Under the pieces are notes generated by a model. That model did no database searches. It was not told the DNA's origin and saw only the letters and a list, made by a program, of their open reading frames with translations. Of a DNA stretch of 64,000 nt, positions 9,424-58,411 are shown one piece after another (position 1 is the first letter of the stretch; every line of letters starts with the position of its first letter). Source of the DNA: Minisyncoccota bacterium (GTDB lineage Bacteria > Patescibacteriota > Minisyncoccia > Phycocordibacterales > JABMNX01); the NCBI GenBank assembly GCA_965222715.1, contig OZ244961.1, forward strand, positions 140,609 to 204,608, in the 5' to 3' direction. Made by a program: the position numbers and the translations under genes.

Positions 9424-10140
9424 CTACACACCTAGTGTATTAAGTAGTGTCTCTCGTTCTTTTTCTGTAAGTTCTCGTTTCTCTCCTACTTTCAGGTTTC
9501 CAAGTTTAAGGTGCATAATACGCACGCGTTTAAGGTCTTCAACTTGGTAGCCAAACGCAGCAGCCATACGTCTAATTTGGTGTTTTTTACCTTCGGTAAG
9601 GATGATTGAAAATGTTCTCTCGCCAAGTTTTTTCACTTTTGCCTCTTTGGTGCGATACCCCTCAATGTTTACTCCGCGACTGAGTCCGTTAATAACGGTG
9701 CCAGTTATTCGTTTATCAACTTTGACCACATACTCTTTTTCATGCGGATATTTTGGATTTAAAAGTCTATCAACAATACGCCCATCGTTCGTTAGGAGCA
9801 TGAGCCCATGAGATGCTTTGTCTAGTCTCCCCACAGGGAAGAATGCCTTACCTAATCCAGAGATGTCCTCAACAGACTGCTCTCCCTTTTGTGGATTATG
9901 TGAGACAACACCTCTTGGTTTGTTGTAGAGCACATACTGATAGCTTTTTGAAAGCTTCTCTACATTTTTAGACACTTCAACCACATCTTTTTTTTCTACC
10001 TGTGCACCGAGTTCTGCAACAACTCCATTAATACGCACATCACCACGCTTGATCATTTCATCTGCTTTTCTGCGCGAACAGTATCCTTTGAGGTAGAGGT
10101 AGCGATTAATGCGTATTGGAAATTCAATCAGATCTTCCAT
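9424..10140 (-). CDS. rRNA pseudouridine synthase (RsuA/RluB family, S4 domain)
   Basis: 238 aa, N-terminal S4 RNA-binding segment, catalytic PVGRLDKASHGLMLLTNDG motif. Confidence 0.8.
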   Translation of the reverse strand: MEDLIEFPIRINRYLYLKGYCSRRKADEMIKRGDVRINGVVAELGAQVEKKDVVEVSKNVEKLSKSYQYVLYNKPRGVVSHNPQKGEQSVEDISGLGKAFFPVGRLDKASHGLMLLTNDGRIVDRLLNPKYPHEKEYVVKVDKRITGTVINGLSRGVNIEGYRTKEAKVKKLGERTFSIILTEGKKHQIRRMAAAFGYQVEDLKRVRIMHLKLGNLKVGEKRELTEKERETLLNTLGV

Positions 10141-10215
10141 AAGTGTGTTTAGTTATAGCACTCTTTTGTATGCCGTGCATTGTTCTTCTTTATGTATGTC
10201 CTATAATACAAAGTA

Positions 10216-10680
10216 ATGAATCGTTTCCTACTCCTCATCGGTATCCCTATGGTGTTTGTTGCTGGTTCTTCTTTGTTCCTTCCCAATCAAAGTGTTCAAC
10301 GTAATACTGTGTTTAATACCACGCTATTTCCACTCTCTGTAAATGGAAAGACACTCTCTGTTGCAATTGCTGATACACCGCAACTCCGCCAAACAGGTCT
10401 TTCAGGAGTACCGTATTTACAAAAAGATACCGGGCTCTTTTTTGTGTTTCCTGAAAGTGGTACCTATGGCATGTGGATGAAAGACATGCACTTTTCTATA
10501 GATATTGTGTGGTTAGATAGTGCATTTCGCGTTGTTGATATACACAAGGGGGTATCACCAGAGACATATCCAGAAACATTTTATACAGATACACCGGCGC
10601 GATATGCGCTTGAGGCAGAAGCTGGTTTTGTTGAAGAGTTCGGTGTTGAAGAAGGGCAACTTTTTATATGGAATAGATAA
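10216..10680 (+). CDS. DUF192 domain protein (secreted)
   Basis: 154 aa, signal peptide, DUF192-like core (VFPESGTYGMWMKDMHFSIDIVWLD). Confidence 0.55.
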   Translation: MNRFLLLIGIPMVFVAGSSLFLPNQSVQRNTVFNTTLFPLSVNGKTLSVAIADTPQLRQTGLSGVPYLQKDTGLFFVFPESGTYGMWMKDMHFSIDIVWLDSAFRVVDIHKGVSPETYPETFYTDTPARYALEAEAGFVEEFGVEEGQLFIWNR

Positions 10681-10902
10681 GCAAAGAGAAGGGGTGCTTT
10701 TTTGTTTTTCTTTTTTAGTTACATATCAGTTGAGGGTATGATAAATACTCAATAAAAAAGCCGTTTTTACATACTTGGTTTGACCGTCATTTTTTTTTAT
10801 TTTCTACTGACCATTTTTGTACTTTTCCACAGAATTTTAAAGCTCGTGAGAGGTACAATAGGAAAACAACTACTCATTAACATATAATCTTCTTTCCGCA
10901 CT

Positions 10903-13248
10903 ATGCTTGAAGCTAACAAAAAGGCGAAAGCCGATGCTAAGATCAACGAGATCATGAATACAAAGGTCGAAAAAAATATCCCTACAGTAACTGCTGCTGA
11001 TTACAAAAAATTTGTACCAAAGATACAAAAACGAGATGGTTCTATTGTTTCTTTTGACTTTGAAAAGATTGTTACTGCAATTTACAAAGCAATGGAAGCA
11101 AGCGGAGAAGGTTCTCGTGAAGAAGCAGCAATGGTCGCGCACCGTGTTGTTGCAGATATGGTACGTATTGCACGGAAATACAAGAATTTCATGCCGACTG
11201 TTGAAGGATGTCAGGACGATGTTGAGCGAGAATTGATTCTTGCTGACTATGTTGCGACTGCAAAGTCATACATTCTCTATCGTGCAGAGCATGCGCGTCG
11301 CCGAGCACAGGAAGTTGCTATCCCTAAAGAAGTTCGAGAGACAATTGCGGAGAGTAGTAAATATTTTAAAACTCCATATCAAGAATTTATCTTCTATCAA
11401 TTTTATTCACGGTGGCGAGATGAGCTTGGCCGACGTGAGACGTGGGTTGAAGCAATTGATCGTTACATGGACTTTATGTATGAAAAACTTGGTGACAAAC
11501 TCACCAAGAAAGAATACAAAGATGTGCGTGAAGCAATTCTTAATCAAGACGTTTGTCCTTCTATGCGCCTCTTGTGGTCAGCAGGGAAAGCGTGTCGCGA
11601 TACGAACGTAACTGCGTATAACTGTGCGTACATTGCACCAACATCATGGCGTGATCTTTCTGAGATCATGTATGTGTCTATGTGTGGCGCGGGATGTGGT
11701 TTCTCAGTTGAGCCTGAAAATGTTGAGAAGTTCCCACAAATTCAAAAACAAAAGAAAGGTGAAGTGAAGAAAATTGTTGTAGAAGACAGTAAGGTTGGGT
11801 GGTGTAACGCGTTTGTTGAAGCGTGTGAGGCATGGGCTGGCGGAGGAGAAGCTGAGATTGATTATTCAAAAATTCGTCCTGCTGGTGCACGACTTCTTAC
11901 CATGGGTGGCCGCGCATCAGGACCCGCACCTCTTGAAGAGTTGATGAACTTTACTCGTCGTAAAATTCTTGCAAAGCAAGGTCGACGACTCTCAACCATT
12001 GATGTACACGATATTGCGTGTCAGATTGGCCTTATTGTTGTTGCTGGTGGGGTACGCAGAAGTGCGCTTATTTCACTCTCTTCACTTGATGACACTGATA
12101 TGCGTGACGCAAAGAAGGGCGCATTCTGGCAGACAGAAGGGCAACGCTCAATGGCAAACAACTCCGCAGTGTATGAAGTAAAACCAACTGCTGATGAATT
12201 CTTTGATGAATGGACTGCGCTCGTAAAAGCAAAAAGTGGTGAGCGAGGCATCTTTAACCGTGGTGGCTTTGAAACACAGTTACCAAAACGCCGATGGAAC
12301 AAACTAAAAGACAAAACACAACCAGGAGTCAATCCGTGTGGAGAAATTTACCTGCAGTCAAAGCAGTTCTGTAACCTTACCTCAATCGTTGTTCGTCCAA
12401 ATGACGACATGAAGAGTTTGAAACGAAAGGTTACTCTTGCGACACTTCTGGGAACATACCAAGCAACACTTACTGACTTTGAGTATCTTTCAAAAGATTG
12501 GAAGAAAAATTGTGAAGACGAACAACTACTTGGTGTATCAATTACTGGGTACTATGACAATGAATTAGTGCGTGATGATAATAACCTTGATGCACTTCGA
12601 GAGGAAAGCATTAAGACAAATAAGAAGTATGCAAAGCGATTCAAGAAAAAAGAATCAACGGCAATTACGTGTGTGAAGCCTCATGGAAACTCAGGACAAC
12701 TACTTGGTGTAGGTTCAGGTATGCACCCATGGTTCGCACGCCACTACATTCGCCGGGTACGTATTAGTGTAAATGATCCACTTCTTAAACTTGCTGAAGA
12801 GCAAGGTGTGCCAATTAAGCCTGAAGTAGGATACTCTACATCAAACGCTTCAACGATGGTACTCGAATTTCCAGTAAAGGCGCCTAAGGGTGCGGTATTA
12901 AACAAGGATGTCTCAGCGCTCGACCTTCTTCATGAATGGAAGCGACTCAAGAAACATTTCACTGAACACAATCCATCAGTAACAATTTACGTTGGTGATA
13001 ATGAATGGGTGGGTGTTGCAAACTTCTTGTATGAGAACTGGGATATTGTTGGCGGACTTTCATTCCTTCCACGAACAGATCATATCTACCAACTTGCTCC
13101 ATACGAAGAGATAGGTAAAGAAGAGTATGAGCGTAGAAAGAAAGATCTTGGTGAGATTGATTTCTCAAAACTAATCAGCTTCGAACGAGAAGATAACACG
13201 GTTGGTGCAAAGGAGCTTGCTTGTTTCGCGGGAACCTGTGAGATATAA
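10903..13248 (+). CDS. ribonucleotide reductase large subunit with N-terminal ATP-cone, probably class II (adenosylcobalamin-dependent)
   Basis: 781 aa; ATP-cone (KIQKRDGSIVSFDFEKIV), active-site NPCGEI, C-terminal Cys pair; no nrdB/nrdF neighbour. Confidence 0.8.
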   Translation: MLEANKKAKADAKINEIMNTKVEKNIPTVTAADYKKFVPKIQKRDGSIVSFDFEKIVTAIYKAMEASGEGSREEAAMVAHRVVADMVRIARKYKNFMPTVEGCQDDVERELILADYVATAKSYILYRAEHARRRAQEVAIPKEVRETIAESSKYFKTPYQEFIFYQFYSRWRDELGRRETWVEAIDRYMDFMYEKLGDKLTKKEYKDVREAILNQDVCPSMRLLWSAGKACRDTNVTAYNCAYIAPTSWRDLSEIMYVSMCGAGCGFSVEPENVEKFPQIQKQKKGEVKKIVVEDSKVGWCNAFVEACEAWAGGGEAEIDYSKIRPAGARLLTMGGRASGPAPLEELMNFTRRKILAKQGRRLSTIDVHDIACQIGLIVVAGGVRRSALISLSSLDDTDMRDAKKGAFWQTEGQRSMANNSAVYEVKPTADEFFDEWTALVKAKSGERGIFNRGGFETQLPKRRWNKLKDKTQPGVNPCGEIYLQSKQFCNLTSIVVRPNDDMKSLKRKVTLATLLGTYQATLTDFEYLSKDWKKNCEDEQLLGVSITGYYDNELVRDDNNLDALREESIKTNKKYAKRFKKKESTAITCVKPHGNSGQLLGVGSGMHPWFARHYIRRVRISVNDPLLKLAEEQGVPIKPEVGYSTSNASTMVLEFPVKAPKGAVLNKDVSALDLLHEWKRLKKHFTEHNPSVTIYVGDNEWVGVANFLYENWDIVGGLSFLPRTDHIYQLAPYEEIGKEEYERRKKDLGEIDFSKLISFEREDNTVGAKELACFAGTCEI

Positions 13249-13346: not shown

Positions 13347-13680
13347 TAGCTTGTATTGGGTAGTTACTGGATATAGTTTCTATATCTAGAGGAAAGTCCG
13401 AACACGTCCACGTAAGTGGAGAAGGGTAGCGGGTAACACCCGTCTAGGGCAACCTAAGAGGTGCGAGCAGAGACGCCTAATTCGAAAGATGAGGGACTCC
13501 TTCGGGAGTAGCTCTGGTGGAAACACTAGAAGTGAAACGGCTAAATCCTTACCTACGTGCAAGGCCGTGCTGAGTTTAACTCAGAGTGCCGCTTGAGGTG
13601 TACAGTGATGTACATCCCAGATAAATGACTACCGTCGTCATTCGTGGCGATACAGAATTCGGCTTATAGATACAAGTGCA
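13347..13680 (+). ncRNA. rnpB: RNase P RNA (bacterial type A)
   Basis: GGAAAGTCCGAACAC P4 strand, AGGGCAACC-type internal segment, 3' ACAGAATTCGGCTTATAG matching the conserved ACAGAAcCCGGCUUA; P1 pairing GCTTGTAT/ATACAAG; P3 hairpin 13362-13386. Confidence 0.8.
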
Positions 13681-13690
13681 ACATATGGTA

Positions 13691-17834: not shown

Positions 17835-19625
17835 ATGAATCATATACGGAATTTTAGTATTATCGCGCATATCGACCACGGCAAATCAACGCTTGCTGAT
17901 CGTATGCTCGAGGTGACCAAAACAGTTGAGGTCAGAAAAATGAAAGAGCAAGTGCTTGATAGCATGGATCTTGAACGTGAGCGGGGTATTACTATAAAAA
18001 TGCAGCCAGTGACAATGCAATATGCAAGAGATGGTGCTGAGTATACCTTTAACCTTATTGATACTCCTGGTCACATTGATTTTCATTACGAAGTATCTCG
18101 TGCACTTAAAGCTGTAGAAGGGGTAGTACTTCTTGTTGATAGTACTCAAGGAGTACAAGCGCAAACTCTCTCAACACTTCGTATGGCAGAAGAACTTGGT
18201 TTGGTTATTGTTCCAGTCTTAAGTAAGGTAGATTCACCTCTTGCTCGGGTGGAAGAAGTGAAAAAAGAAGTTGCTAAACTTCTTTCATGTAGTGAAGAGG
18301 ATATTCTTACCTGCTCAGGTAAGACCGGGGAAGGTGTTGAAGAAGTGCTTTGTAGGGTTATCGATGTTGTACCACCTCCACAGTCTACTGGAGAGGAATT
18401 CAGAGGTTTAATATTTGATTTTCAGTACTCGACACACCGAGGAGTTATCGTATACATTCGAGTGCTTGATGGCACGGTAAAGAGTGGCTCGCAGCTTTTC
18501 TTTAAGGGTGCGCAAGAAAAATTTAATGCGATTGAGGTTGGTATCTTCTCTCCTGAAGAAAAACCTGTTCAATCGCTTACTGCTGGTGCTATTGGCTACA
18601 TTGTAACTGGTATTAAGCGACCAGGAATTGCTTCTGTTGGAGATACTGTAGTGTTACAGGGAAGTAACGCCCAAGCTCTTTCAGGATATCGCACACCAGC
18701 GCCTATGGTTTGGGCGTCAGTCTATCCTGAGAGCCAAGACGATTTCACGGAACTACGCCAAGCGCTTGAGCGCCTTCGACTTTCTGATTCCTCGCTTTCG
18801 TTTGAGGAAGAAATGTCAGGAGTCATGGGTCGTGGTTTTCGCTGTGGCTTCTTAGGAATGCTTCATCTTGAAATCATTACTGAGCGACTCCAGAGAGAAT
18901 TTGGTCTTGGACTAGTGGTAACAACGCCAAGTATTACCTACGAAGCAGTGCTCAAAGGTGGAGAACACAAAAAGATATACTCTGCTATTCAGTTCCCCGA
19001 ACACAGCACTTTTGAAAAAATTCTTGAACCATGGGTTTCAATAGAAATCATTGTGCCCCCAGAGTATCTTGGTCCAGTCACCCAGCTACTGTATGAACAC
19101 GAAGCAATGATAGGAGATTCAGAAAACTTTGGTGACAATCGAATGCGTATTTGTGCTGACATGCCGCTGCGTGAGTTGATGCGTAACTTTTTTGATCGAC
19201 TCAAAAATGTTTCATCTGGTTTTGCTTCAATTCTCTATGAAATTGAAGATATGCTTGAGGCAGATGTAGTGCGACTAGACATTCTTGTCTCTGAAGAACT
19301 TGTGCCAGCATTTTCTCGTATTGTCTCACGTCGCCGTGTGCAAGAAGAAGCTGAATCACTTGTTGAACGTCTTTACACACTACTCCCAAAACAACAAGTG
19401 GTGACCAAGATTCAAGCGCAAGCCCTCGGAAGAATAATTGCCTCTAAAAAACTTTCTGCCCTTAAGAAGGATGTAACCGGACATCTTTACGGTGGTGATA
19501 TAACAAGAAAACGAAAGCTGTGGGAGAAGCAGAAGAAAGGAAAGAAGAAAATGCAGCAGTTTGCAAAAGCAAACATACCGCAAGAAGTGTTTCTTAAGGT
19601 AATGAGAGGGGAGGAGAAAAAATAA
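17835..19625 (+). CDS. lepA: elongation factor 4 (LepA)
   Basis: 596 aa, IRNFSIIAHIDHGKSTLADR G-domain and LepA C-terminal domain. Confidence 0.9.
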   Translation: MNHIRNFSIIAHIDHGKSTLADRMLEVTKTVEVRKMKEQVLDSMDLERERGITIKMQPVTMQYARDGAEYTFNLIDTPGHIDFHYEVSRALKAVEGVVLLVDSTQGVQAQTLSTLRMAEELGLVIVPVLSKVDSPLARVEEVKKEVAKLLSCSEEDILTCSGKTGEGVEEVLCRVIDVVPPPQSTGEEFRGLIFDFQYSTHRGVIVYIRVLDGTVKSGSQLFFKGAQEKFNAIEVGIFSPEEKPVQSLTAGAIGYIVTGIKRPGIASVGDTVVLQGSNAQALSGYRTPAPMVWASVYPESQDDFTELRQALERLRLSDSSLSFEEEMSGVMGRGFRCGFLGMLHLEIITERLQREFGLGLVVTTPSITYEAVLKGGEHKKIYSAIQFPEHSTFEKILEPWVSIEIIVPPEYLGPVTQLLYEHEAMIGDSENFGDNRMRICADMPLRELMRNFFDRLKNVSSGFASILYEIEDMLEADVVRLDILVSEELVPAFSRIVSRRRVQEEAESLVERLYTLLPKQQVVTKIQAQALGRIIASKKLSALKKDVTGHLYGGDITRKRKLWEKQKKGKKKMQQFAKANIPQEVFLKVMRGEEKK

Positions 19626-19797
19626 GTACTAATACCCAACTCCAGGAACCAGTCCGGGTGCAAAGAAAAGCACCATACTGATGATAATAAGTATACCGAG
19701 AACCATCCAGGTATACTTCACTATTTTTTTCGTTCGTTTATCGAATAACATACTATTGTTTTGAGGTATAATAAGCTAAAGACATACCTTTTTCAAG

Positions 19798-20196
19798 GTG
19801 TACGTATGTATGTTTGATTTTTACGAGAAACGAAAGATGCGACAGTGGTTTTTGTCGTGGCCCTCATTAATTATTCTTATTATTCTCACATTCTTTCTTG
19901 CTCGTGGGGTGTGGGGTGTGTATGTACAGGAGCGAGACACACGTATCACTAAAAATCAGCGTGTCGCTCATCTAGAAGAGTTAGAAGGCCGTGAGTCAGC
20001 ACTTCAGGAGGAACTTGATCGATTAGATACGGAACGTGGAGTCGAAGAAGAAATACGAAGAAAGTTTGAAGTTGCTAGGGAGGGAGAAAAAGTGATTGTA
20101 ATAGTTGATGCCCCTACTAATGCCGGAGAAGATAGTGGGGGTAATCCAAAAGGTTTTTGGCGTTCTTTTTTTGATACTGTTGTTTTTTGGGACTAG
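19798..20196 (+). CDS. septum formation initiator family protein (FtsB/DivIC-like)
   Basis: 132 aa, single N-terminal TM followed by coiled coil (LEELEGRESALQEELDRLD). Confidence 0.5.
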   Translation: MYVCMFDFYEKRKMRQWFLSWPSLIILIILTFFLARGVWGVYVQERDTRITKNQRVAHLEELEGRESALQEELDRLDTERGVEEEIRRKFEVAREGEKVIVIVDAPTNAGEDSGGNPKGFWRSFFDTVVFWD

Positions 20197-20245
20197 TGGA
20201 GGTGTGGTATACTACTTCGTATCATTAGGAGATAAAATAAATAGT

Positions 20246-20482
20246 ATGGATAAACAAGTAGTTATTTATAGCACCCCGACTTGTCATTTCTGTCAGATGA
20301 CAAAAGAATTCTTAAAAGAGAATAATATTGAGTACACAGATTATAATGTTGCTGAAGATATGGAAAAGCGACAAGAAATGATTGAGAAGAGTGGACAAAT
20401 GGGAGTACCAGTAACATTTGTCGATGAAGAGATGTTTGTGGGGTTTGATAAAGACAAACTCTCACAAGCTCTTGGATTGTAA
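20246..20482 (+). CDS. glutaredoxin-like protein (NrdH/Grx family, CHFC active site)
   Basis: 78 aa from ATG 20246, thioredoxin fold motifs (VVIYSTPTCHFCQ, GVPV); a longer alternative frame from 20105 would add a TM helix but overlaps ftsB. Confidence 0.6.
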   Translation: MDKQVVIYSTPTCHFCQMTKEFLKENNIEYTDYNVAEDMEKRQEMIEKSGQMGVPVTFVDEEMFVGFDKDKLSQALGL

Positions 20483-20615: not shown

Positions 20616-21119
20616 ATGGAACCCAAACTTCCCATATGCACCCAAGGATTACTTGGTCGTTGGGTGGATACTCTATTTGAGCCAGTAATGCGGTATATCT
20701 CATCAGGGGCACCTGAGGAGATGCCACAACGGACACATCGTTGGAATAATCACCATTTGAAAGAAGAGAAAGTCGCACATCTTAAATCAGGGTGGATGGC
20801 TGCACACTCTGGCGACCCAAATGCAAGCAGTGCTCCCCACATATTGGCGCATTTGACTCGATATGGTGGGTGGGACCATTACCTCGTGCTTTCTCCCAAA
20901 ACAGAAGAAAATTGTAGTTGGCACATTGGCTGGCAATGGTCTGGAGGCGCTGGCGTGTCTCGTGTTCCAGTCGAGGGTCCGGTACGAGTACTTGTTGGTC
21001 CAAAGCCAACGAAATGGTTTGGGATTAATGCGGAGACACATACCCAAATTCCGATTCAACAAATTGGCAAGGGGAAAATTGGTCGCAACAAAGAGTTCTT
21101 TAAGATCCCTCTTTTTTAA
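20616..21119 (+). CDS. hypothetical protein, Trp/His-rich, no recognisable domain
   Basis: 167-aa ORF with strong promoter, RBS and downstream terminator; GC (~48%) above flanks. Confidence 0.45.
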   Translation: MEPKLPICTQGLLGRWVDTLFEPVMRYISSGAPEEMPQRTHRWNNHHLKEEKVAHLKSGWMAAHSGDPNASSAPHILAHLTRYGGWDHYLVLSPKTEENCSWHIGWQWSGGAGVSRVPVEGPVRVLVGPKPTKWFGINAETHTQIPIQQIGKGKIGRNKEFFKIPLF

Positions 21120-40612: not shown

Positions 40613-40657
40613 AAGTCAAAAGTAAAACCGCCCCAAGCACTTCTGCGCTTGGGGCGG
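40613..40657 (-). terminator. GC-rich intrinsic terminator for the GC-rich secreted-protein gene
   Basis: minus-strand CCGCCCCAAGC gcagaagt GCTTGGGGCGG followed by TTTTACTTTT. Confidence 0.6.
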
Positions 40658-40710
40658 GGGTTGAACGGGAACGACGATTTGATCGTCAGAGAGACTTCGG
40701 CACCGGCCGA

Positions 40711-41229
40711 TCAGGATGCGATCGTCAGACCGCTCCAGCCGCCGGACAGCAGGGTCGTCTTCAGCAACAGGCCGGACGTACCGGAAGTGTCGATGAAGTC
40801 GTTGTTGGTGTCGAACGCCGCGACCTCCAGCGCGGAGGGCGGCATCTTGGCCAGGCCGGCGGTCGTGCCGACGTTCAGCTGATCGAAGTCCATGAAGGCG
40901 CTCACCTGGTCGAGATCGTGGATCACGACGTTCGGCGGGTTGCCGATGTCGGCGCCGTCGGAATACAGAAGCCACTGGGTCCGGTCGAAGTCGGACAGAT
41001 CGCCGATGTCGGCCAGCATGGTCTGCTGGCGCGCGGCCGGCGTCGTCGAGTCGTTGGTCGTGACCGAGCAGTCGAACGCCGCGACCTCCACCGCGGTGCC
41101 GTTCAGGCCGATGTCGACGTCGAGCGCATTGCAGTCGTTACTGGCGAGCGCCGCGTTCGGCGGTGCCATGGCGACGAAACCCAAGATGGCGGCTGCCATC
41201 AGCGGGGTCATGAAGAAACGTTTCCTCAT
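40711..41229 (-). CDS. secreted hypothetical protein with internal EVAAFD repeat, GC-rich (likely horizontally acquired)
   Basis: 172 aa from ATG 41229 (GGGAG RBS); signal peptide MRKRFFMTPLMAAAILGFVAMAPPNAALA; about 63% GC versus about 39% background. Confidence 0.55.
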   Translation of the reverse strand: MRKRFFMTPLMAAAILGFVAMAPPNAALASNDCNALDVDIGLNGTAVEVAAFDCSVTTNDSTTPAARQQTMLADIGDLSDFDRTQWLLYSDGADIGNPPNVVIHDLDQVSAFMDFDQLNVGTTAGLAKMPPSALEVAAFDTNNDFIDTSGTSGLLLKTTLLSGGWSGLTIAS

Positions 41230-41377
41230 TCGCTTTTCTCCCATTCGAGTGTGAAGAACAGTGCCTCACTGTTGAGACCTGCCCAGTGTATCATATAAAG
41301 AAATATTGTCAAGTCCTCACATATGTGGTGTGGAAAACAACTTTATTACTTAAGAATGTGTGTAAAATGAAAGAAAT

Positions 41378-41403
41378 AAACGCCACGAATACCCTTGGTG
41401 TTT
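41378..41403. repeat. degenerate copy of the conserved palindromic repeat (AAACGCCACGAATACCCTTGGTGTTT)
   Basis: arms diverged from AAACGCCAAG/CTTGGCGTTT. Confidence 0.45.
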
Positions 41404-41431
41404 CGCTCAAAATGGCTCTATAGAGCTCTGT

Positions 41432-41456
41432 AAACGCCAAGGGTATTCTTGGCGTT
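41432..41456. repeat. conserved palindromic repeat copy (AAACGCCAAGGGTATTCTTGGCGTTT)
   Basis: intact arms; lies in a divergent intergenic region. Confidence 0.6.
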
Positions 41457-41491
41457 TAACGCGGCAGCCTTCTCGTGTATACTAATCGGAT

Positions 41492-42144: not shown

Positions 42145-42693
42145 ATGCCTAAAAAAATTTTTACCACACTTGAGAAGCTAAGACAGCGACCAGTTCGCGA
42201 GCGTCGAGCACTTGCGTTTAGTGCTGCAGCAACAATTACTGGAGTTATTTTTATCATATGGGCAGTTTCTTTTCTTGCAACACTCCACATAGAAGGGGGT
42301 ACACAGGCTACTAACCAAGAAGCACACTCGTTTGGTGTTTTCATGGATTCAATTAGAGAAGCAACAGAAACAGTAGGAAGAGATGTAGAAGCTGTGCGCA
42401 CACAAATACATACACTGACTGAAGAAGCTCAGCAGGCACAAAACAGTACCAGAGAGAACGTACAAGAAGACGCTTTTGTTATTGAAGAGGTGAAAGATAC
42501 AGCACATGAAGTGGGTAGTGTAGAAGGTGATGAAGAAAACAGTGAAGTACTTACAGAAGATTCAGCAGTAGACACTCCTCGCAGTACTACCCATAGTACT
42601 ACTACTACACAAACAGAAGCACAGAGTAAAACAGAAGATAAGGCAGAGGTCACATCTTCAGGACTTGAGATTATACGGGTTGATGACGAATAA
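42145..42693 (+). CDS. hypothetical membrane-anchored protein with acidic, Thr-rich C-terminus
   Basis: 182 aa, one TM helix, low-complexity tail. Confidence 0.45.
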   Translation: MPKKIFTTLEKLRQRPVRERRALAFSAAATITGVIFIIWAVSFLATLHIEGGTQATNQEAHSFGVFMDSIREATETVGRDVEAVRTQIHTLTEEAQQAQNSTRENVQEDAFVIEEVKDTAHEVGSVEGDEENSEVLTEDSAVDTPRSTTHSTTTTQTEAQSKTEDKAEVTSSGLEIIRVDDE

Positions 42694-42794: not shown

Positions 42795-45299
42795 ATGGCG
42801 AAAAAAAATACTGGCAAAAAAGAAACAACTCCTGGAGATGGGGATAAAAATGGGGGTGTGGACGGTACAGACAAGAGCCGTCAGAGCGTCATCCCACAAG
42901 GAGTGAGTGCTGAGATGCGTGAGGCGTATCTTAATTATGCGATGTCAGTGATTACCTCACGTGCGCTTCCCGATGTTCGTGACGGACTCAAGCCGGTGCA
43001 TCGACGCATTCTCTTTACTATGCATCAAATGGGGCTCACGTCTTCTGCTCGTTTTCGTAAATCAGCTGCGGTTGTTGGAGATGTGCTCGGTAAGTTTCAC
43101 CCGCACGGTGACACTGCTGTATATGATGCCTTAGCAAAAATGGCGCAAGACTTTTCAATGCGCTACCCACTTATTATTGGACAAGGTAACTTCGGTTCTG
43201 TTGATGGTGATGCGCCGGCTGCTATGCGGTACACCGAAGCAAAAATGGAGAAACTTGCTGGTGAGATGCTTCGTGATTTAGAGAAAGAAACTGTCGAGTG
43301 GCGAGGCAACTATGACAACACTCGGAAGGAGCCAGAAGTGCTTCCTGCTGGAGCACCAGCACTGCTTTTAAATGGTACCCTCGGTATTGCAGTGGGTATG
43401 GCGACTAATATTCCACCACATAATCTCACTGAAGTATCTGAAGCAACCATACACCTCATTGATAATCCAAAGGCAACCACCGAAGACTTGATGGAGTTTG
43501 TACAAGGACCCGACTTTCCAAGTGGGTGTATTGCGTTTAACGAAAAAGATATTCATCAAGCGTATGCAAGTGGTAAGGGAGGAGTAGTGGTGCGCGGTGT
43601 TGCAACTATTGATGAAGACGCAAAGGGAAGTGCGCAAATTATTATTTCTTCAATTCCATTTCGTGTAAATAAAGCTGACCTTATTACAAAGATTGCTGAT
43701 TTAGTACATGCAAAGAAAATAGAAGGTATTAAAGGACTTCGTGATGAATCAACAACAGAGACGCGGATTGTCATTGATCTTAAGGGAAGTTCACATCCAC
43801 AGACAGTCCTCAATTACCTCTACAAGCACACCCAGCTTGAAGAAACATTTCACTACAACATGGTCGCACTTCTTGATGGTGTGCCACAAACACTGTCATT
43901 AAAGAGTATTCTTGAAGCTTTCATCCTACACCGAAAGGAAGTGGTCACACGACGTACACAGTTTGAACTAAAGAAAGCAGAAGCACGTGAACACATCTTA
44001 CTTGGTCTTAAAAAAGCACTTGATCATATTGATGCGATCATTAAGACGATTAAGAAATCAAAAGATGCGAGCGCCGCGCATGCCGCATTGATGAAAGAAT
44101 TTAAATTCTCAGAACTTCAGGCAACAGCGATCCTTGAAATGAAGCTTCAAAAACTTGCAGGGCTTGAGCGTAAGAAAATTGAAGACGAATTGAAAGCAAT
44201 TCAAGCACTCATTAAAGAACTCACTGAACTTCTAAAAAGTGAAAAGAAGATACTTGGAGTGGTAAAAGATGAACTCAAAGAGTTGGTAAAAAACTTTGGT
44301 GACGAACGTCGTACAAAAATAATGAAAAGTGGTGTGAAGTCACTCTCTGTTGAGGATTTGGTACCTGATGAAGAAAGTATGCTTGTCTTTACCAAGGGCG
44401 GGTATGTAAAGCGCACTAACCCAAGCGAGTACAAGCGACAAAAACGTGGAGGTGTTGGTGTTGTTGATTTAAGTACTAAAGAAGAAGATGTGGTAACACG
44501 GTTCTTAACCACGAGCACGCACAGTGACCTCCTATTCTTTACTGATAAAGGAAAGGTATACCAGATAAAGATGTACGATATTCCTGAAGGGCGTCGAGCA
44601 ACAAAAGGAAAATCTATTATGAACTTCCTTTCAGTTCAACAAGATGAATATGTGACCTCAATTCTTGCCATGCCAAAAGAGGCAAAGAAACATGATTTCT
44701 CACTTATGATGGTGACTAAAAATGGTATTGCTAAAAAGGTCTCTGCCGAAAATTTCCACGACGTACGTCGTAGTGGCCTTATTGCGATTACTCTTAAAGA
44801 TAACGACGAGCTTATTTCAGCGTCATTTGTGGAGAAGGGCGAAGATATTTCTGTTGCTACTAAAAAAGGGCAGTCAATTCGATTTAAGGAGTCTGACATT
44901 CGTGAAATGGGACGAACTGCTGCAGGAGTTCGCGCAATAAAACTTGGTAAAGGTGATGTGGTTATTGGCGCACAGGTGATTCATACCGATTACAAAGAGC
45001 CTGAACTGCTCGTCCTATCAAGCGCAGGGTACGGAAAGAAAACAGCTCTCAGTGAATATAAAGTACAGAAACGTGGTGGCTCTGGTATTAAGACGGTGAA
45101 GATAACCCAGAAGACAGGAGATCTTATTGCTATGGCGGTTGTTGATGGTACTGAGGGCGAGGTTGTTGCAGTATCACAAAAAGGACAAGTTATTCGTATT
45201 GGACTTGATGAGGTGCCGTCACTGTCACGACAAACACAAGGTGTGCGGGTTATGAAACTTCGTGAAGGAGACAATGTTGCTTCAATGGTCTGCCTCTAG
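42795..45299 (+). CDS. gyrA: DNA gyrase subunit A
   Basis: 834 aa, AMSVITSRALPDVRDGLKPVHRR active-site region, GyrA-box QKRGGVG in the CTD; no gyrB adjacent. Confidence 0.9.
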   Translation: MAKKNTGKKETTPGDGDKNGGVDGTDKSRQSVIPQGVSAEMREAYLNYAMSVITSRALPDVRDGLKPVHRRILFTMHQMGLTSSARFRKSAAVVGDVLGKFHPHGDTAVYDALAKMAQDFSMRYPLIIGQGNFGSVDGDAPAAMRYTEAKMEKLAGEMLRDLEKETVEWRGNYDNTRKEPEVLPAGAPALLLNGTLGIAVGMATNIPPHNLTEVSEATIHLIDNPKATTEDLMEFVQGPDFPSGCIAFNEKDIHQAYASGKGGVVVRGVATIDEDAKGSAQIIISSIPFRVNKADLITKIADLVHAKKIEGIKGLRDESTTETRIVIDLKGSSHPQTVLNYLYKHTQLEETFHYNMVALLDGVPQTLSLKSILEAFILHRKEVVTRRTQFELKKAEAREHILLGLKKALDHIDAIIKTIKKSKDASAAHAALMKEFKFSELQATAILEMKLQKLAGLERKKIEDELKAIQALIKELTELLKSEKKILGVVKDELKELVKNFGDERRTKIMKSGVKSLSVEDLVPDEESMLVFTKGGYVKRTNPSEYKRQKRGGVGVVDLSTKEEDVVTRFLTTSTHSDLLFFTDKGKVYQIKMYDIPEGRRATKGKSIMNFLSVQQDEYVTSILAMPKEAKKHDFSLMMVTKNGIAKKVSAENFHDVRRSGLIAITLKDNDELISASFVEKGEDISVATKKGQSIRFKESDIREMGRTAAGVRAIKLGKGDVVIGAQVIHTDYKEPELLVLSSAGYGKKTALSEYKVQKRGGSGIKTVKITQKTGDLIAMAVVDGTEGEVVAVSQKGQVIRIGLDEVPSLSRQTQGVRVMKLREGDNVASMVCL

Positions 45300-45355: not shown

Positions 45356-45895
45356 ATGCGTTTTGCTGACCCGAAAGCAAATATTGGTCGGTTTGAATTA
45401 GAACCGGGTAGTGTCGTTGCTGATTTTGGCGCTGGTGGTGGTGAGTATACACTCAAAGCAGCGGAGGTTGTCGGACATAGCGGGGTAGTCTATGCTATTG
45501 ATGTACAACAGGATCTCCTTAAACGGCTCTCTAATAGAGCAAAAGCAGGAGGGCATAAGAATATTGAGGTGGTGTGGGGAGACATTGAAACCTTAGGTGG
45601 CAGTACACTCCCCGCTATGTCAGTTGATGCACTTATTCTCTCAAACACCTTATTTCAGGTTGAAAACAAAGAAGGTCTTTTTAAAGAGATTGACCGAGTG
45701 GTGAAGCGGAATGGAAAAGTCTTAGTCATTGACTGGAAAGACTCGTTTGGTGGGATGGGGCCAGAAGAAGATGCGTTAGTCTTACCACGTGAAGCGAAAG
45801 ACTTATTTCTTAATATTAACATGGTACCGCTTCGTGAAATGGAGGCAGGATCGCATCATTACGGTATACTATTTATACGAAAAGATAGAAGGTAA
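45356..45895 (+). CDS. class I SAM-dependent methyltransferase
   Basis: 179 aa, motif I VADFGAGGGEYT. Confidence 0.7.
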   Translation: MRFADPKANIGRFELEPGSVVADFGAGGGEYTLKAAEVVGHSGVVYAIDVQQDLLKRLSNRAKAGGHKNIEVVWGDIETLGGSTLPAMSVDALILSNTLFQVENKEGLFKEIDRVVKRNGKVLVIDWKDSFGGMGPEEDALVLPREAKDLFLNINMVPLREMEAGSHHYGILFIRKDRR

Positions 45896-45898: not shown

Positions 45899-47206
45899 AT
45901 GAAAGGACTGAGTATATTTCAAATTGTTGTTATCGGGGCGTTTGTATTCTTTACTGTTGTTGGGGTACTTATTTTTGCTGGTGTTGGTGGGTTAGGTGGA
46001 GACAGTCGTTCTGTTGGAGAAGTAGAGATTTGGGGAACGTACGACGAGCAAGTGTTGACGAGTTTACTCCGCAGTCGATCATTTGATGATCCACGTTTTG
46101 AAGAGGTGACCTACGTTGAGAAGGACCCTCGTTTTTTTACTGAAGAACTTATTGAAGCTCTCGCCTCAGGTAGTGGACCTGATTTGTTTTTCTTAGAACA
46201 GGACTCAATTCTACGCTTTATAGATAAGGTTCAGCCGATTCCATACGAAACATTTTCTCAAAGAGAATTTAGAGACACGTTTATAGAAGAAGGAGAACTC
46301 TTCTTAACAGAAGCTGGTATTGTCGCTCTTCCATTTATGGTTGACCCAATGGTCTTGTACTGGAACCGTGATCACTACACTCGCGGAGGAGTCGTGCGTC
46401 CTCCACAATTTTGGGATGAGCTACAGACACTTGCCCTCAATAGTTCACTCACACGACGAGGAGAGTCTGGGGCAATTCTTCAAAGTGCATTTGCAATTGG
46501 TGAGTATAGTAATATAAACCATGCAAAAGAACTACTCTCACTTCTTATGCTTCAAGCGGGGACTTCAATTACCGCATATACTGAAAGTGGTGAACTTATA
46601 CCAACACTCTTGGTGCGTCTACAGAATGGTCAAATTCCTTCTGAAAATGCACTTCGTTTCTACACTGACTTTGCGAATCCAACAAAGTCTGTCTATACCT
46701 GGAACCGCGCGCTTGATGAGGCGCAAGAAGAATTTGTAGCGGGGACACTTTCAAACTACATTGGTTTTGCGAGTGAGCTGCCTGATATTAGACGACAGAA
46801 CTCAAATTTGAATTTTGATGTTGCTATGGTGCCTCAGGTGCGCACCGGCACTCGAAGTGTTACGTTCGGCACGGTAACTGGTCTTGCTATCCCACGAGCT
46901 TCAGACAATATAAACGGTGCTGCGCAAATTGCGTTTGCGTTAACGTCAGACGATCTCCTTAGTGAAGTGAGTGACGTAACGGGGCTTCCACCTGTTTCTC
47001 GATCATTACTGAGTGATACACCAAGTGATCCATTTAAAGTTATCTTTAGAGATGCAGCATTACGTGCAGATGCGTGGCTTGAACCGAATAATACTGAAAC
47101 AGAACGCATATTTAAACAAATGATCGAATCGGTTGTTTCAGGTCGTGCACGCGTGAGTCAAGCTGTGGAAGTTGCCCAACAAGAACTCAGAAGTTTGTTA
47201 GAATAA
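45899..47206 (+). CDS. extracellular solute-binding protein (ABC transporter SBP family 1-like)
   Basis: 435 aa, N-terminal TM anchor, sugar-SBP-like length; weak. Confidence 0.5.
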   Translation: MKGLSIFQIVVIGAFVFFTVVGVLIFAGVGGLGGDSRSVGEVEIWGTYDEQVLTSLLRSRSFDDPRFEEVTYVEKDPRFFTEELIEALASGSGPDLFFLEQDSILRFIDKVQPIPYETFSQREFRDTFIEEGELFLTEAGIVALPFMVDPMVLYWNRDHYTRGGVVRPPQFWDELQTLALNSSLTRRGESGAILQSAFAIGEYSNINHAKELLSLLMLQAGTSITAYTESGELIPTLLVRLQNGQIPSENALRFYTDFANPTKSVYTWNRALDEAQEEFVAGTLSNYIGFASELPDIRRQNSNLNFDVAMVPQVRTGTRSVTFGTVTGLAIPRASDNINGAAQIAFALTSDDLLSEVSDVTGLPPVSRSLLSDTPSDPFKVIFRDAALRADAWLEPNNTETERIFKQMIESVVSGRARVSQAVEVAQQELRSLLE

Positions 47207-47225: not shown

Positions 47226-47597
47226 ATGTTCACTAAATATCTTTACCTGTTTGTTGCAGTTACCACACTCTTTTTCTTAAGTGATATTCCGCATGCTTTT
47301 GCGCAGTCGGGTGGTTGTGACTCTGGCACTGGGTTACGTAACCCTCTTAATAATATTTGTAGCTTTGAAGATTTTGTTGAACTTCTGCTTGAGGCAGTAG
47401 TGCGCATCGGACTTCCAATTGCAGTGCTCTTTATTGTGTACTCTGGATTTCTCTTTGCAACAGCTCAGGGTAATGAAGAAAAAATCAAAAAAGCAAAACA
47501 AGCGTTTTTCTACACAGTTATTGGTATTACCATCTTCCTTGGGGCATGGGCGCTTGCGGTCATTATTGGAAACACCATACAGCTCCTTGCTGGATAG
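47226..47597 (+). CDS. TrbC/VirB2-like pilin-type small membrane protein (paralog 1)
   Basis: 123 aa: signal peptide, Cys pair, TM1-charged loop (QGNEEKIKKAK)-TM2 topology. Confidence 0.5.
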   Translation: MFTKYLYLFVAVTTLFFLSDIPHAFAQSGGCDSGTGLRNPLNNICSFEDFVELLLEAVVRIGLPIAVLFIVYSGFLFATAQGNEEKIKKAKQAFFYTVIGITIFLGAWALAVIIGNTIQLLAG

Positions 47598-47601
47598 TAG
47601 T

Positions 47602-47904
47602 ATGAAAAGAACATTTCTTCTTAGCACAACATTGTTTCTCACCCCATTTCTTGCACTTGCTGCCCCAAGTAATTTTCCTGAACTTGTTGGTCTCTTTATT
47701 TTCTATATTAATCTTATTATCCCACTAATAATTGCACTTGCAGTTCTCGGTTTCTTTTGGGGTGTTGCGCAATATATACTTGCATCGAAAGATACCTCAA
47801 AGATACAAGACGCCCGAAAAATGATCCTCTGGAGCCTGATTGCAATCTTTGTTATGACATCAGTGTGGGGAATACTACGGGTGCTTGCTAATACATTTCT
47901 ATAG
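47602..47904 (+). CDS. TrbC/VirB2-like pilin-type small membrane protein (paralog 2)
   Basis: 100 aa from ATG 47602: signal peptide, FFWGVAQYILASKD...WSLIAIFVMTSVWG two-helix core. Confidence 0.5.
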   Translation: MKRTFLLSTTLFLTPFLALAAPSNFPELVGLFIFYINLIIPLIIALAVLGFFWGVAQYILASKDTSKIQDARKMILWSLIAIFVMTSVWGILRVLANTFL

Positions 47905-48020
47905 ACTACTAGTGTATATGTAATCCACAGCAGTTCATTGCCTAGCATCTTATAACCCAGCTATGATACTATAAAGTGTACAGGTTATTTATTAGCACTT
48001 AATAATACGTAATTATTACA

Positions 48021-48371
48021 ATGAAAAAGTTTTTAATACTTCCAGGATTCCTTGCAGGTCTTCTTGTTGCTCCACTTGCAGTACAGGCACAAGGTGATCT
48101 CCAGGGTGTCATCACTGTCTTTTCAGACCTTATCAACCTCGCTATTCCTCTAGTGCTTGCACTTGCAGTACTCTACTTCTTCTGGGGACTCGCAATGTTT
48201 GTGCTTGCTCAAGGAAATGAAGACAAGCGTAAGGAAGGACGAGATATCATGATTTACGGTATCATTGCTCTCTTTGTGATGGTGTCCGTCTGGGGTCTTA
48301 TCGGAATCTTACAAGATACATTTGGTGTAGATAACACTAACCCAATTGTCCCTGAAGAGATTCGAAGGTAG
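48021..48371 (+). CDS. TrbC/VirB2-like pilin-type small membrane protein (paralog 3)
   Basis: 116 aa: signal peptide ending AQA, LYFFWGLAMFVLAQGNEDKRKEGRD...VMVSVWG core. Confidence 0.5.
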   Translation: MKKFLILPGFLAGLLVAPLAVQAQGDLQGVITVFSDLINLAIPLVLALAVLYFFWGLAMFVLAQGNEDKRKEGRDIMIYGIIALFVMVSVWGLIGILQDTFGVDNTNPIVPEEIRR

Positions 48372-48405
48372 GGTGTCTCTCAAGGTTCTCTAACGTATTT
48401 TCTTT

Positions 48406-48648
48406 ATGTCAGTTGATGACTTAGTGAGTCGCATCTCACAGTACATTATCGATCCAATCATTCTGCTCTTGTTCGCGCTTGGGTTGTTGTACTTCCTCTG
48501 GGGTGTTGCCATATTTATATGGCAGTCTGATAGTGAAGATGCTCGGAAGAAGGGTGTACAACATATGCTTTGGGGAATCATTGGAATGTTTATTATGATT
48601 GCCGCACTCGGTATCATAAATCTCATTGAAGGAACCTTTGGTTTGTAA
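48406..48648 (+). CDS. TrbC/VirB2-like pilin-type small membrane protein (paralog 4, no signal peptide)
   Basis: 80 aa: LYFLWGVAIFIWQSDSEDARKKG...IMIAALG core. Confidence 0.45.
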   Translation: MSVDDLVSRISQYIIDPIILLLFALGLLYFLWGVAIFIWQSDSEDARKKGVQHMLWGIIGMFIMIAALGIINLIEGTFGL

Positions 48649-48667
48649 GTATAGACTTAGCTAAAAT

Positions 48668-48698
48668 AAAAAACGCCAAAGCTGCTCTTGGCGTTTTT
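48668..48698 (+). terminator. conserved palindromic terminator repeat copy (AAAACGCCAAAGCTGCTCTTGGCGTTTT)
   Basis: stem plus T-run immediately after the last pilin-like gene. Confidence 0.6.
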
Positions 48699-48759
48699 TA
48701 TTTTAATTGAAAAAAAGAAGTAAAGCGTGTATTATTTTTCTTTGTATTGATTACTCAGA

Positions 48760-48832
48760 CCGCCTATAGCTCAGTTGGTAGAGCAACCGCCTCTTAAGCG
48801 GTGGGTCCTAGGTTCGAGTCCTAGTGGGCGGA
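48760..48832 (+). tRNA. tRNA-Lys (anticodon CTT)
   Basis: cloverleaf by eye with C1-G72; anticodon loop CTCTTAA. Confidence 0.75.
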
Positions 48833-48859
48833 CTGAGTAATCAATAAGAACATACACAA

Positions 48860-48941
48860 GCGCGGGTGGTGAAATTGGTAGACACGCTTGCCTTAGGAGC
48901 AAGTGCCTTCGGGCATGGAGGTTCGAGTCCTCTCCCGCGCA
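48860..48941 (+). tRNA. tRNA-Leu (anticodon TAG)
   Basis: cloverleaf by eye, long variable arm; anticodon loop CTTAGGA. Confidence 0.8.
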
Positions 48942-48969
48942 CAAAAAAGAATTTAAAACCAATTTGAAT

Positions 48970-49098
48970 TTTCGGTGCCCGGGACGGGAGTCGGTGTCAG
49001 CTCACTAAGCGTTATGCGCTAAGTGGCTCCTACCCGGACTCACTCGCTATCGCTCGTTCCGTCTTTCGACTCCCTTGAACCAAAATTAAAACACTGAC
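48970..49098 (-). repeat. tRNA 3'-flank structured element, copy B (24-nt repeat of the tRNA-Leu(TAA) 3' end)
   Basis: minus-strand reading: CAGTGTTTTAATTTTGGT-TCAAGGGAGTCGAAAGACGGAACGAGCGATAGCGAGTGAGTCCGGGTAGGAGCCACTT-hairpin-TAGTGAGCTGACACCGAC-GTCCCGGGCACCGAAA. Confidence 0.7.
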
Positions 49099-49121
49099 CC
49101 TCGCCAGTGTTTCAATTTCGG

Positions 49122-49202
49122 TGCCCGGGACGGGAGTCGAACCCGTATCCTAGAAGGACCCGATTTTAAGTCGAGCGCGTATACCAATTCCGCCACCCGG
49201 GC
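49122..49202 (-). tRNA. tRNA-Leu (anticodon TAA)
   Basis: cloverleaf by eye, long variable arm; anticodon loop CTTAAAA; followed by CCG. Confidence 0.8.
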
Positions 49203-49240
49203 AATAAGCAAAGCTCTCACGTATTGGAGAATTTTACTAG

Positions 49241-49312
49241 AGGCACGGGCGGGAATCGAACCCGCGCATCGCGGTTTTGCAGACCGCTGTGTTACCACTT
49301 CACCACCGTGCC
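49241..49312 (-). tRNA. tRNA-Cys (anticodon GCA)
   Basis: cloverleaf by eye, U73; anticodon loop CTGCAAA. Confidence 0.85.
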
Positions 49313-57577: not shown

Positions 57578-58411
57578 ATGAAATACGTACTTGCACTTGC
57601 TGTTCTATTTGTACTCATTGGGGGTACTTTTTTGCTATTGCCGGATGCGACTTTTGCACAATTCGATAACCCATCCCAAGGTACTGCAGTCCCTGGGGGC
57701 AATACTTCTTCTGGTTTAACGGAGAGAGTGGGGGGTGGAGGACTAGTGCCATGTGGAGGTCCAGGGCAAGACGCGTGTACCACATGTCACGCACTTCAAC
57801 TTGCACAAAATGTTGTTGAGTTCATTGTGCAAGTCTCATTTGTGATTGCTGCACTTCTGTTTGCCTACGCAGGCTTTCTCTTCTTTACTTCCTCTGCAGT
57901 TGACTCCATTTCAACAGCAAAAAATATTTTTACCAATACCGTTGTTGGTATCATCATCATTCTTACTGCTTGGCTCTTAGTAAATGTACTTCTTCATACA
58001 CTTACCGGTAAAGGAGTTAACCCTTTCACTGAATTGTTGTGTGACATAACTGAGCAACCCATACGAAACAATGCAACGAACAATTCAATAAACACTACCG
58101 GGGGCACAGCTAGTGGTGTGAGTACGGAAGGTGTTTCAGAAAATGATTCAGAGATAGATCCACTTCAAGATGCGCGAGATCGTGCAGCAGAAATACAGGC
58201 TGAACGTGATCGACAACTAGAAGAAGAGCGTCAGGCAGCAGTTGAAGCGGGGGGAGACCCTGACGAAGTGCCGTTGGTCAATAAATGGTTTTTTAGAACA
58301 CAGACAGGTCCACAAGGAGAAGAGGTGGGGCCTTTTGATTCGCAACCAGAATGTGTAAGTCGTGCAATTGCTTCAGGGGTAAATCCATTTTGTTACGCAA
58401 AATCAATCTAG
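57578..58411 (+). CDS. TrbC/VirB2-like pilin-type membrane protein (paralog 5) with 130-aa C-terminal Asn/Thr- and acidic-rich extension
   Basis: 277 aa: signal peptide, Cys-rich segment (CGGPGQDACTTCH), two-helix core collinear with 47226-47597. Confidence 0.45.
   Translation: MKYVLALAVLFVLIGGTFLLLPDATFAQFDNPSQGTAVPGGNTSSGLTERVGGGGLVPCGGPGQDACTTCHALQLAQNVVEFIVQVSFVIAALLFAYAGFLFFTSSAVDSISTAKNIFTNTVVGIIIILTAWLLVNVLLHTLTGKGVNPFTELLCDITEQPIRNNATNNSINTTGGTASGVSTEGVSENDSEIDPLQDARDRAAEIQAERDRQLEEERQAAVEAGGDPDEVPLVNKWFFRTQTGPQGEEVGPFDSQPECVSRAIASGVNPFCYAKSI

Follow-up and report, generated by a model that had tools for sequence, protein, structure and literature searches.

The pilin-like gene array and its products

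The 64,000-nucleotide stretch of contig OZ244961.1 analyzed here (hereafter, the window) carries at positions 47226-48648 four consecutive plus-strand open reading frames (ORFs), pil1 to pil4, which encode small membrane proteins of 123, 100, 116, and 80 amino acids. The public annotation of the single 617,472-bp contig contains the identical four products, and both the ORFs and this annotation agree with the tandem cluster described in the original prediction, which had been made from the letters of the DNA alone. [quoted passage not shown] The host, as had been supposed, is a reduced-genome bacterium; the names of homologs and the relatives of its ParB protein, which come from Paceibacterota and from metagenome-assembled genomes of Parcubacteria (the closest relative is 75% identical), place it among the Paceibacteria-type bacteria in the Candidate Phyla Radiation (CPR).

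The type 1 protein, encoded by pil1 (47226-47597), matches both PF18895 and PF04956 and has a signal peptide cleavage site AFA↓Q, a pair of cysteines (GGCDSG...NNIC), a GLxNPLxN motif, and two transmembrane (TM) helices. The type 2 gene pil2 (47602-47904) starts 4 nt past the pil1 stop codon; its product, which scores 103.9 bits with the family hidden Markov model (HMM) described below, possesses the cleavage site ALA↓A and the motifs GFFWG and SVWG. The type 3 product of pil3 (48021-48371; PF18895, 39.6 bits) combines the site VQA↓Q, the motifs YFFWG and SVWG, and a conserved C-terminal tail (NPIVP..IR), and the type 4 product of pil4 (48406-48648; PF18895, 31.9 bits), the last in the array, is a bare helical hairpin without a signal peptide. 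The N-termini of the first three proteins are thus hydrophobic signals with an AxA-type (signal peptidase I-type) site; both this distribution of signal peptides and the Cys pair of pil1 had been noted before and are seen in the sequences.

Each of the four proteins contains two long hydrophobic helices, as defined by hydropathy segments, with a charged loop between them (GNEEKIKKAK, KDTSKIQDARK, GNEDKRKEGRD, and SDSEDARKKG in pil1 to pil4, respectively). AlphaFold2 models of pil3 (two long helices, 27-62 and 67-101, pLDDT 78.5) and pil4 (a hairpin of helices 3-39 and 44-78, pLDDT 89.5) together with hydropathy bear out the expected topology of two TM helices with a short polar loop, preceded or not by a signal peptide. 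As to the motifs that the four proteins had been said to share, the charged loops and the two helices do occur in all of them; however, the FFWG-type motif (FFWG/YFFWG/YFLWG) is confined to pil2-pil4, pil1 having YSGFLFATAQG instead, and SVWG is found in pil2 and pil3 only. FFWG and SVWG are conserved motifs, as is a proline in helix 1.

A longer ORF with a TTG start (47419-47904), considered as the true second gene, was rejected: it would share 179 nt with pil1, and in the public annotation as well as in the orthologs the gene begins at the ATG corresponding to 47602. Pilins of type IV pili, in which a signal peptide of class III (G↓F/M...E5) and one hydrophobic helix at the N-terminus precede a globular head, were considered as well and rejected: no Pfam family of such pilins was matched, the cleavage sites are of the AxA type, and the proteins have two TM helices and no globular domain.

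Homology and family assignment

With the PF18895 model (T4SS_pilin; gathering cut-off 26.6 bits) the scores of pil1 to pil4 were 39.9, 25.4, 39.6, and 31.9 bits, i.e., pil2 fell 1.2 bits below the cut-off, and the alignments spanned most of the profile (up to positions 3-71 of 71). The TrbC/VirB2 model PF04956 was matched by pil1 with 30.0 bits (E = 6e-7), above its cut-off of 27.9, and gave no match to pil2-pil4; weak marks of this family were also present in the type 1 orthologs from related loci. By these profile matches, pil1 is the TrbC-like member of the array. The initially proposed assignment to pilins of the VirB2/TrbC superfamily is thereby supported, with PF18895 passed by pil1, pil3, and pil4, and PF04956 by pil1. 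A further model, NF045849, built for the Mbov_0395 family of pilin-like conjugal transfer proteins from mycoplasma integrative and conjugative elements (ICEs), scored pil1 to pil4 with 28.9, 22.9, 19.7, and 34.4 bits against an equivalog cut-off of 40; out of the 80 positions in this profile, pil4 was aligned to 7-79 (E = 1.3e-8). Judging by these scores, the four proteins are homologous to the NF045849 family without being its equivalogs.

Identity between the paralogs of the window is only 20-41% (22-41% pairwise, 20-41% in an alignment together with the orthologs). Nevertheless, the family HMM, built without any sequences from the window, recognized pil1-pil4 with 94-131 bits, while the maximum for composition-matched shuffles (200 per gene) was 10.9 bits, so that the resemblance between the four proteins reflects homology and not hydrophobic composition. 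There were 183 significant homologs of pil3, and all 120 of those listed carry PF18895; the named ones among them come from Kaiserbacteria, Paceibacterota, Yonathbacteria, and Campbellbacteria. An exhaustive profile search retrieved 25,077 cluster representatives (E <= 1e-3) of the same architecture, which makes the family a very large one.

The best sequence match in the PDB was TraM of the entry 8cw4, deposited as a chain in 70 copies (E = 0.021), which we take to be the VirB2 pilin of pKM101; the profile of type 1 retrieved from the PDB only noise matches to G protein-coupled receptors (GPCRs). A tblastn search with pil1 and pil4 against 72,556 plasmids gave zero matches. In pil1, the segment at the N-terminus of the mature protein (residues 33-47, SGTGLRNPLNNICSF) resembles its counterpart in the Agrobacterium VirB2 (SAGGGTDPATMVNNICTF), with NNIC[ST]F in common, although the statistics of this similarity are weak.

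Conservation of the array in related loci

In four other assemblies the genes of close pil3 homologs are found within the same block, lactamase_B-gyrA-methyltransferase-SBP-pilins-(tRNAs)-rbfA-infB, where SBP stands for a solute-binding protein; the block is common to the five genome loci and to about 70 of 80 metagenome loci. The latter sample (L028-L107) was collected by a scan with an alignment of the SBP, to which its members show SBP identities of 39-64%. Pilin ORFs lie directly downstream of the SBP gene in these approximately 70 loci, and all but one of the remaining loci end no more than 600 nt past the SBP stop codon. Upstream of the SBP gene, gyrA and the methyltransferase gene are present wherever the metagenome sequence extends, and the methyltransferase gene precedes the SBP gene in nearly all of the ~85 related loci.

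Pilin ORFs of the metagenome loci were assigned to types with type-specific HMMs. The 44 complete arrays contain 2-7 genes (4.4 on average), arranged as one or two type 1 genes, followed by one to four genes of type 2/3 and then by a single short type 4 gene; type 4 is the last in the large majority of these arrays, and no exact pattern is more frequent than the 1-2-3-4 of the window. Across a large clade, both the arrangement of types and the block in its entirety are conserved.

In the three genomes most closely related to that of the window (L001, L003, and L004), identities of the window proteins to their positional orthologs are 64, 60, and 62% for pil1, 54, 60, and 53% for pil2, 73, 65, and 62% for pil3, and 64, 61, and 64% for pil4. 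In the same genomes the SBP is 61-64%, IF2 69-71%, and GyrA 78-85% identical. The pilins, diverging to a degree similar to that of the SBP and somewhat greater than that of IF2, are therefore not hypervariable. Since positional orthologs (53-73%) are much closer to each other than the paralogs within the window (20-41%) and the order of types is conserved, we suppose that the four proteins are distinct, non-redundant subunits; as far as can be judged from these comparisons, the four paralogs are ancient and fixed. The same identities, along with the order kept over the 44 arrays, speak against the proposal of the original prediction that the expansion of paralogs suggests antigenic diversification.

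The L003 array includes a fifth gene (10656-11009) that is 94% identical to the type 3 gene located two genes upstream (10001-10336), although little of the signal peptide is left in it. This gene seems to have arisen by a partial duplication not long ago; in the close relatives there is no other hint that the array is still expanding.

A fifth pilin-domain gene and hairpin fusions

A scan of 771 reading-frame segments of at least 40 amino acids with the family HMM revealed one further pilin-domain gene in the window, pil5 (57578-58411, plus strand), overlooked in the initial count of pilin genes. It is not linked to the array and lies just past clpB and a tRNA-Tyr gene; orthologs of 278 aa in L004 and of 328 aa in L006 likewise follow clpB. 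The 277-aa product consists of a signal peptide, a Gly/Cys-rich N-terminal segment, a hairpin resembling type 1 (69 bits with the type 1 HMM; PF18895, 30.4 bits at residues 74-138), and a C-terminal extension of ~135 residues, which is predicted to be extracellular. In L001, the position of pil5 is taken by a gene (19210-20333) for a 521-aa protein in which a weak T4SS_pilin domain comes after a Peptidase_S8 domain; here the hairpin appears to anchor a secreted protease.

Hairpins of this family are also frequently joined to each other: 71 of the 149 best-scoring family representatives contain 2-8 hairpins per polypeptide (within the proteins P0125-P0238, e.g., three in P0125, seven in P0171, and eight in P0232). 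Short linkers rich in Gly connect the hairpins, and signal peptides are missing from the interior of the polypeptides. The fusions also show that a hairpin must have both of its ends on the same side of the membrane. The types fused (1-2, 2-3, 3-3, and 3-4) match the gene order in the arrays, and such colinear fusions, as "Rosetta-stone" evidence, argue that neighboring classes act next to each other within a common assembly. Multi-hairpin fusions are not mentioned in the accessible parts of the literature on Patescibacteria T4SS pilins cited here.

Genomic context in the window

Upstream of the array are gyrA (42795-45299), the gene of a class I S-adenosylmethionine-dependent methyltransferase of 179 aa (45356-45895, plus strand; Pfam Methyltransf_31/11/25, E 1e-15), and, 3 nt downstream of the latter, the gene of a 435-aa SBP-like protein (45899-47206, plus strand). 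The SBP-like protein has an N-terminal TM anchor and weak matches to the MalE/UgpB models of NCBIfam, and its orthologs carry PF01547/PF13416. The neighbors of the pilin genes are thus those named in the original prediction, a methyltransferase and a membrane-anchored solute-binding protein. The gaps along the series methyltransferase-SBP-pil1-pil2-pil3-pil4 are 3, 19, 4, 116, and 34 nt. The methyltransferase gene belongs to the conserved block, and its product may or may not act together with the pilins. The SBP gene is an orphan: no gene for an ABC permease or ATPase occurs among its neighbors in any locus examined, and its position immediately ahead of the pilin array is kept down to 39% identity.

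The pilin genes are followed by an intrinsic terminator (48662-48705, plus strand) with a GC-rich core at 48674-48693 and a subsequent U-run; its predicted fold (-19.8 kcal/mol, z = -6.3) was not equaled in stability by any of 200 shuffled sequences. By this prediction, the terminator is the end of the pilin transcription unit. It is succeeded by a promoter-like site (48707-48735) and then by the tRNA-Lys gene. A convergent cluster of four tRNA genes lies directly downstream of the terminator, and the window has 13 tRNA genes in total (e.g., 48760-49312).

The AT-rich 116-nt spacer ahead of pil3 (47905-48020) is long in comparison with the remaining array junctions (3-45 nt). A spacer of 100-136 nt precedes the type 3 gene in other loci, too (L001 9882-10000, L003 9865-10000, L004 9901-10000, L005 9865-10000). 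Its sequence is weakly conserved, with a loosely conserved element GTAATTAT; two promoter-like sites are present in the window (47938-47967 and 47977-48006), their number not exceeding the shuffle expectation, and the search of this region against Rfam returned nothing. A regulatory RNA in the spacer was considered on these grounds and rejected. The spacer may serve as an internal promoter that sets the ratio of the subunits.

The scan of the whole window took in every ORF with 500 aa or more and almost every one with 150 aa or more. The products identified include GroEL, ribonucleotide reductase, MurJ, LepA, ValRS, FtsA, FtsZ, HisRS, signal peptidase, GyrA, IF2, ClpB, MiaA, and ParB, all Pfam-assigned ORFs being housekeeping ones; three of the scanned ORFs (8505-9056, 20616-21119, and 42145-42693) had no Pfam family.

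Comparison with known pilin systems

Tandem VirB2-like arrays have been published for Patescibacteria, so the array in the window is an already described phenomenon and not new in kind. According to the accessible part of the survey by Quinonero-Coronel et al. (2025, PMC12102498), 3,035 Patescibacteria genomes were searched with PF18895 and PF04956; VirB4 was detected in 2,417 of them (80%), and VirB2-like genes occurred in 1,948 VirB4-containing assemblies, near virB4 in only 1,135. In the same part of the survey, two or more pilin-HMM genes count as an array if they are in tandem or one gene apart, and 441 arrays of 2-11 genes are reported, mainly in Microgenomatia and Saccharimonadia, with ~25% mean and 54% maximum identity; virB4 of Paceibacteria is said there to be usually located near dnaA/dnaN. 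With its four tandem genes and identities of 22-41%, the array studied here resembles those arrays, as it does in having pilin genes that, like those of many genomes of the survey, are not near virB4. The linkage to gyrA, the methyltransferase, and SBP genes, the fixed order of types, positional orthology, and multi-hairpin fusions are not described in the portion of that paper available to us, and the assemblies related to ours are absent from its supplement. The conserved gyrA-methyltransferase-SBP-pilin block, the ordered classes, pil5, and the multi-hairpin fusions therefore appear to be additions to the literature.

An array of six PF18895 genes, SEML1_0014-0019, was studied in Ca. Southlakia epibionticum ML1 (S. 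epibionticum), where all six are essential for epibiotic growth and adjoin genes for VirB4, PrgI, and VirB6-like proteins (Wang et al., 2023, PMC10633639). It shares with ours the phylum, the tandem arrangement of small genes (proteins of 103-185 aa), the PF18895 domain (some members also having PF04956), the sequence divergence of paralogs with a common fold, and the lack of a relaxase-type conjugation context. However, the SEML1 genes belong to a member of the Saccharimonadia and are situated inside a T4SS cluster (VirB4, SEML1_0008; PrgI, SEML1_0010; VirB6-like) near recF at the start of the numbering, whereas the four genes of the Paceibacteria window lie between gyrA-methyltransferase-SBP and the tRNA cluster, with no T4SS gene in the 64 kb.

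With the canonical pilins VirB2, TrbC, and TraM (PF04956), the proteins have in common a signal peptide, two hydrophobic helices, and a basic loop. In contrast to them, only pil1 passes PF04956, and no significant match to VirB2 came from comparing profiles; the bacterium is a monoderm, unlike the Gram-negative bacteria harboring canonical pilins, and its signal peptides are short or, in pil4, absent; four classes are encoded together instead of one major pilin, and genes for VirB3-B11 are not adjacent. Mbov_0395 (NF045849), like pil4, consists of 80 residues with two helices and lacks a signal peptide, and its model is matched by all four genes; this likeness fits the ancestry from the mating-pair formation class MPF-FATA that was proposed for the T4SS of CPR bacteria. 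The mycoplasma genes, however, reside in mobile ICEs beside VirB4-type genes, whereas those of the window reside in a conserved chromosomal housekeeping block. Finally, Bartonella (Trw) and Anaplasma phagocytophilum also possess tandem VirB2 paralogs, of T4SSs that do not serve conjugation (cited in the accessible part of PMC12102498). These bacteria are host-associated, too, but their paralogs are regarded as antigenic or host-range variants of one subunit, while the paralogs of the window are old ordered classes with conserved orthologs.

Possible function of the array

Taken together, the data make it rather probable, in our opinion, that pil1-pil4 are distinct co-assembling subunits of an extracellular or envelope-spanning part of the Patescibacteria T4SS, the ATPase and channel genes of which would be located elsewhere in the genome. 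Within this scheme, the hairpins would be inserted into the membrane with both the N- and C-termini outside and the loop in the cytoplasm, and the four classes would act as non-interchangeable subunits that assemble together, as the colinear natural fusions suggest. A VirB4 machine derived from MPF-FATA, presumably encoded outside the window and, in this class, usually near dnaA, would extract the hairpins from the membrane, and these would then build a pilus or conduit of a T4SS that acts on a host cell and not in conjugation. The denial of a conjugative role in the original prediction agrees with what is available of the literature on Patescibacteria T4SSs (PMC12102498, PMC10633639). A possible pilus or conduit in these monoderms is weighed in a 2025 review (PMC12857230), and in Paceibacterales the genes of unknown function with the highest expression include those of T4SS pilins (Kuroda et al., 2024, PMC10936435).

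Several observations weigh against such a T4SS assembly. The comparison of the type 1 profile with VirB2 of A. tumefaciens by hhalign yielded E = 0.007 with a probability of 5%, and for the type 3 profile nothing was found, so by profile comparison the link to canonical VirB2 is remote. None of the scanned ORFs of the window encodes VirB4, VirB6, VirB3, or VirD4, just as had been predicted for the first, second, and fourth of these. Nor does any of the four occur within 6-10 kb of the array or of parB in about 100 related loci; for VirB4 in particular, this negative result covers 6 kb around the array in the 80 metagenome loci and 10 kb around parB in 22 relatives. Single polytopic proteins made of 6-8 fused hairpins are hard to reconcile with a classical pilus composed of monomers, and pili are normally missing from the T4SSs of monoderms. 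No PF18895 protein is known to form a filament, and none is described as doing so in what is available of PMC10633639, PMC12857230, and PMC11665869.

One could suppose instead that the hairpins stay in the cytoplasmic membrane, either as an oligomer or scaffold, maybe engaged in uptake together with the orphan SBP, or as an anchor with both termini outside that displays extracellular domains. This explanation, the main rival, which we find unlikely but worth keeping in mind, would account for the constant linkage of the array to the SBP gene in ~85 loci, none of which shows a link to VirB4, for the same hairpin anchoring the 135-aa extension of pil5 and the S8 peptidase of L001, and for polypeptides of 6-8 hairpins, i.e., proteins with 12-16 TM segments; the fold is, besides, that of a generic TM hairpin. 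It is at odds with the association of PF18895 with T4SS loci in other CPR classes, among them the essential S. epibionticum array beside VirB4, and with the passing of the TrbC/VirB2 model by pil1; moreover, the SBP linkage is inseparable from the general synteny around gyrA, and the high expression mentioned above (PMC10936435) suits a structural polymer. A further and quite doubtful idea is that, in a large Paceibacteria clade, the methyltransferase, the orphan SBP, and the ordered pilin classes are one conserved functional module for a heteromeric surface or envelope structure. The pilin classes would be its non-interchangeable subunits, placed next to each other as in the natural fusions, and the SBP would be the ligand-capturing or host-binding part; such a structure could serve nutrient scavenging or host docking, would be separate from the VirB4 machine in genetic terms, and might in part work without it.

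Another role to be weighed is that of a diversification device, in which alternative paralogs would be turned on or exchanged so that the cell escapes recognition or suits different host strains. This has been put forward for the paralogs of Bartonella Trw and Anaplasma VirB2; in the accessible part of PMC12102498 the variety of pilins is likewise proposed to aid host adaptation or host-range versatility. The low identity within the array (22-41%), comparable to the 25% average given there for published arrays, the variation of copy number from 2 to 7 across lineages, and the recent 94% duplicate in L003 could be explained in this way. We nevertheless hold such a role to be improbable: the positional orthologs are about as conserved as the SBP, the order of types is fixed, the four genes are intact and form one terminated unit without silent cassettes or repeats, and different types are joined in the fusions, which points to their simultaneous use. 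Still harder to accept is the view that the small hydrophobic proteins are unrelated ones, for example of a holin-like kind or generic peptides of the membrane, which match pilin HMMs owing to TM composition. The modest Pfam scores of 25-40 bits, the GPCR helices among the PDB profile matches, and the absence of tblastn matches in plasmids would fit it, but the gap between the shuffles and the real proteins, the coverage of most of the Pfam profile, the common architecture of ~25,000 representatives, and the conservation of FFWG, SVWG, and the proline of helix 1 make it very improbable.

If the pilins do assemble into a conduit that takes up host molecules, their linkage to the SBP would provide a tangible point from which to approach the mechanism. 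What the T4SS and its pilin arrays do in Patescibacteria is recognized as an unsettled question, with the array being essential in the one species tested; for Saccharibacteria the role of the T4SS was called "completely unknown" (PMC11665869). The locus provides leads for one class in particular: ordered distinct classes of pilins, their coupling to an SBP and a methyltransferase and not to an ATPase, and fusions that indicate co-assembly. This class, the Paceibacteria, is the most species-rich of the CPR.

Other features of the window

Apart from the array, the window contains a bacterial class A RNase P RNA (13348-13682, 128 bits) and, between the genes of an S1 protein and a lactamase_B protein, a GC-rich islet (40616-41298; GC content ~0.49 against 0.42 in the window). 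The islet includes an ORF on the minus strand (40711-41244, 177 aa) whose product has a signal peptide, and a long hairpin is located nearby (41376-41459). As the matching gap is much shorter in L004, an insertion is suggested. One more gene (7472-8155, plus strand) encodes a 227-aa protein with a stand-alone GGDEF diguanylate cyclase domain; cyclic-di-GMP signaling in a genome reduced to ~0.6 Mb may merit attention.

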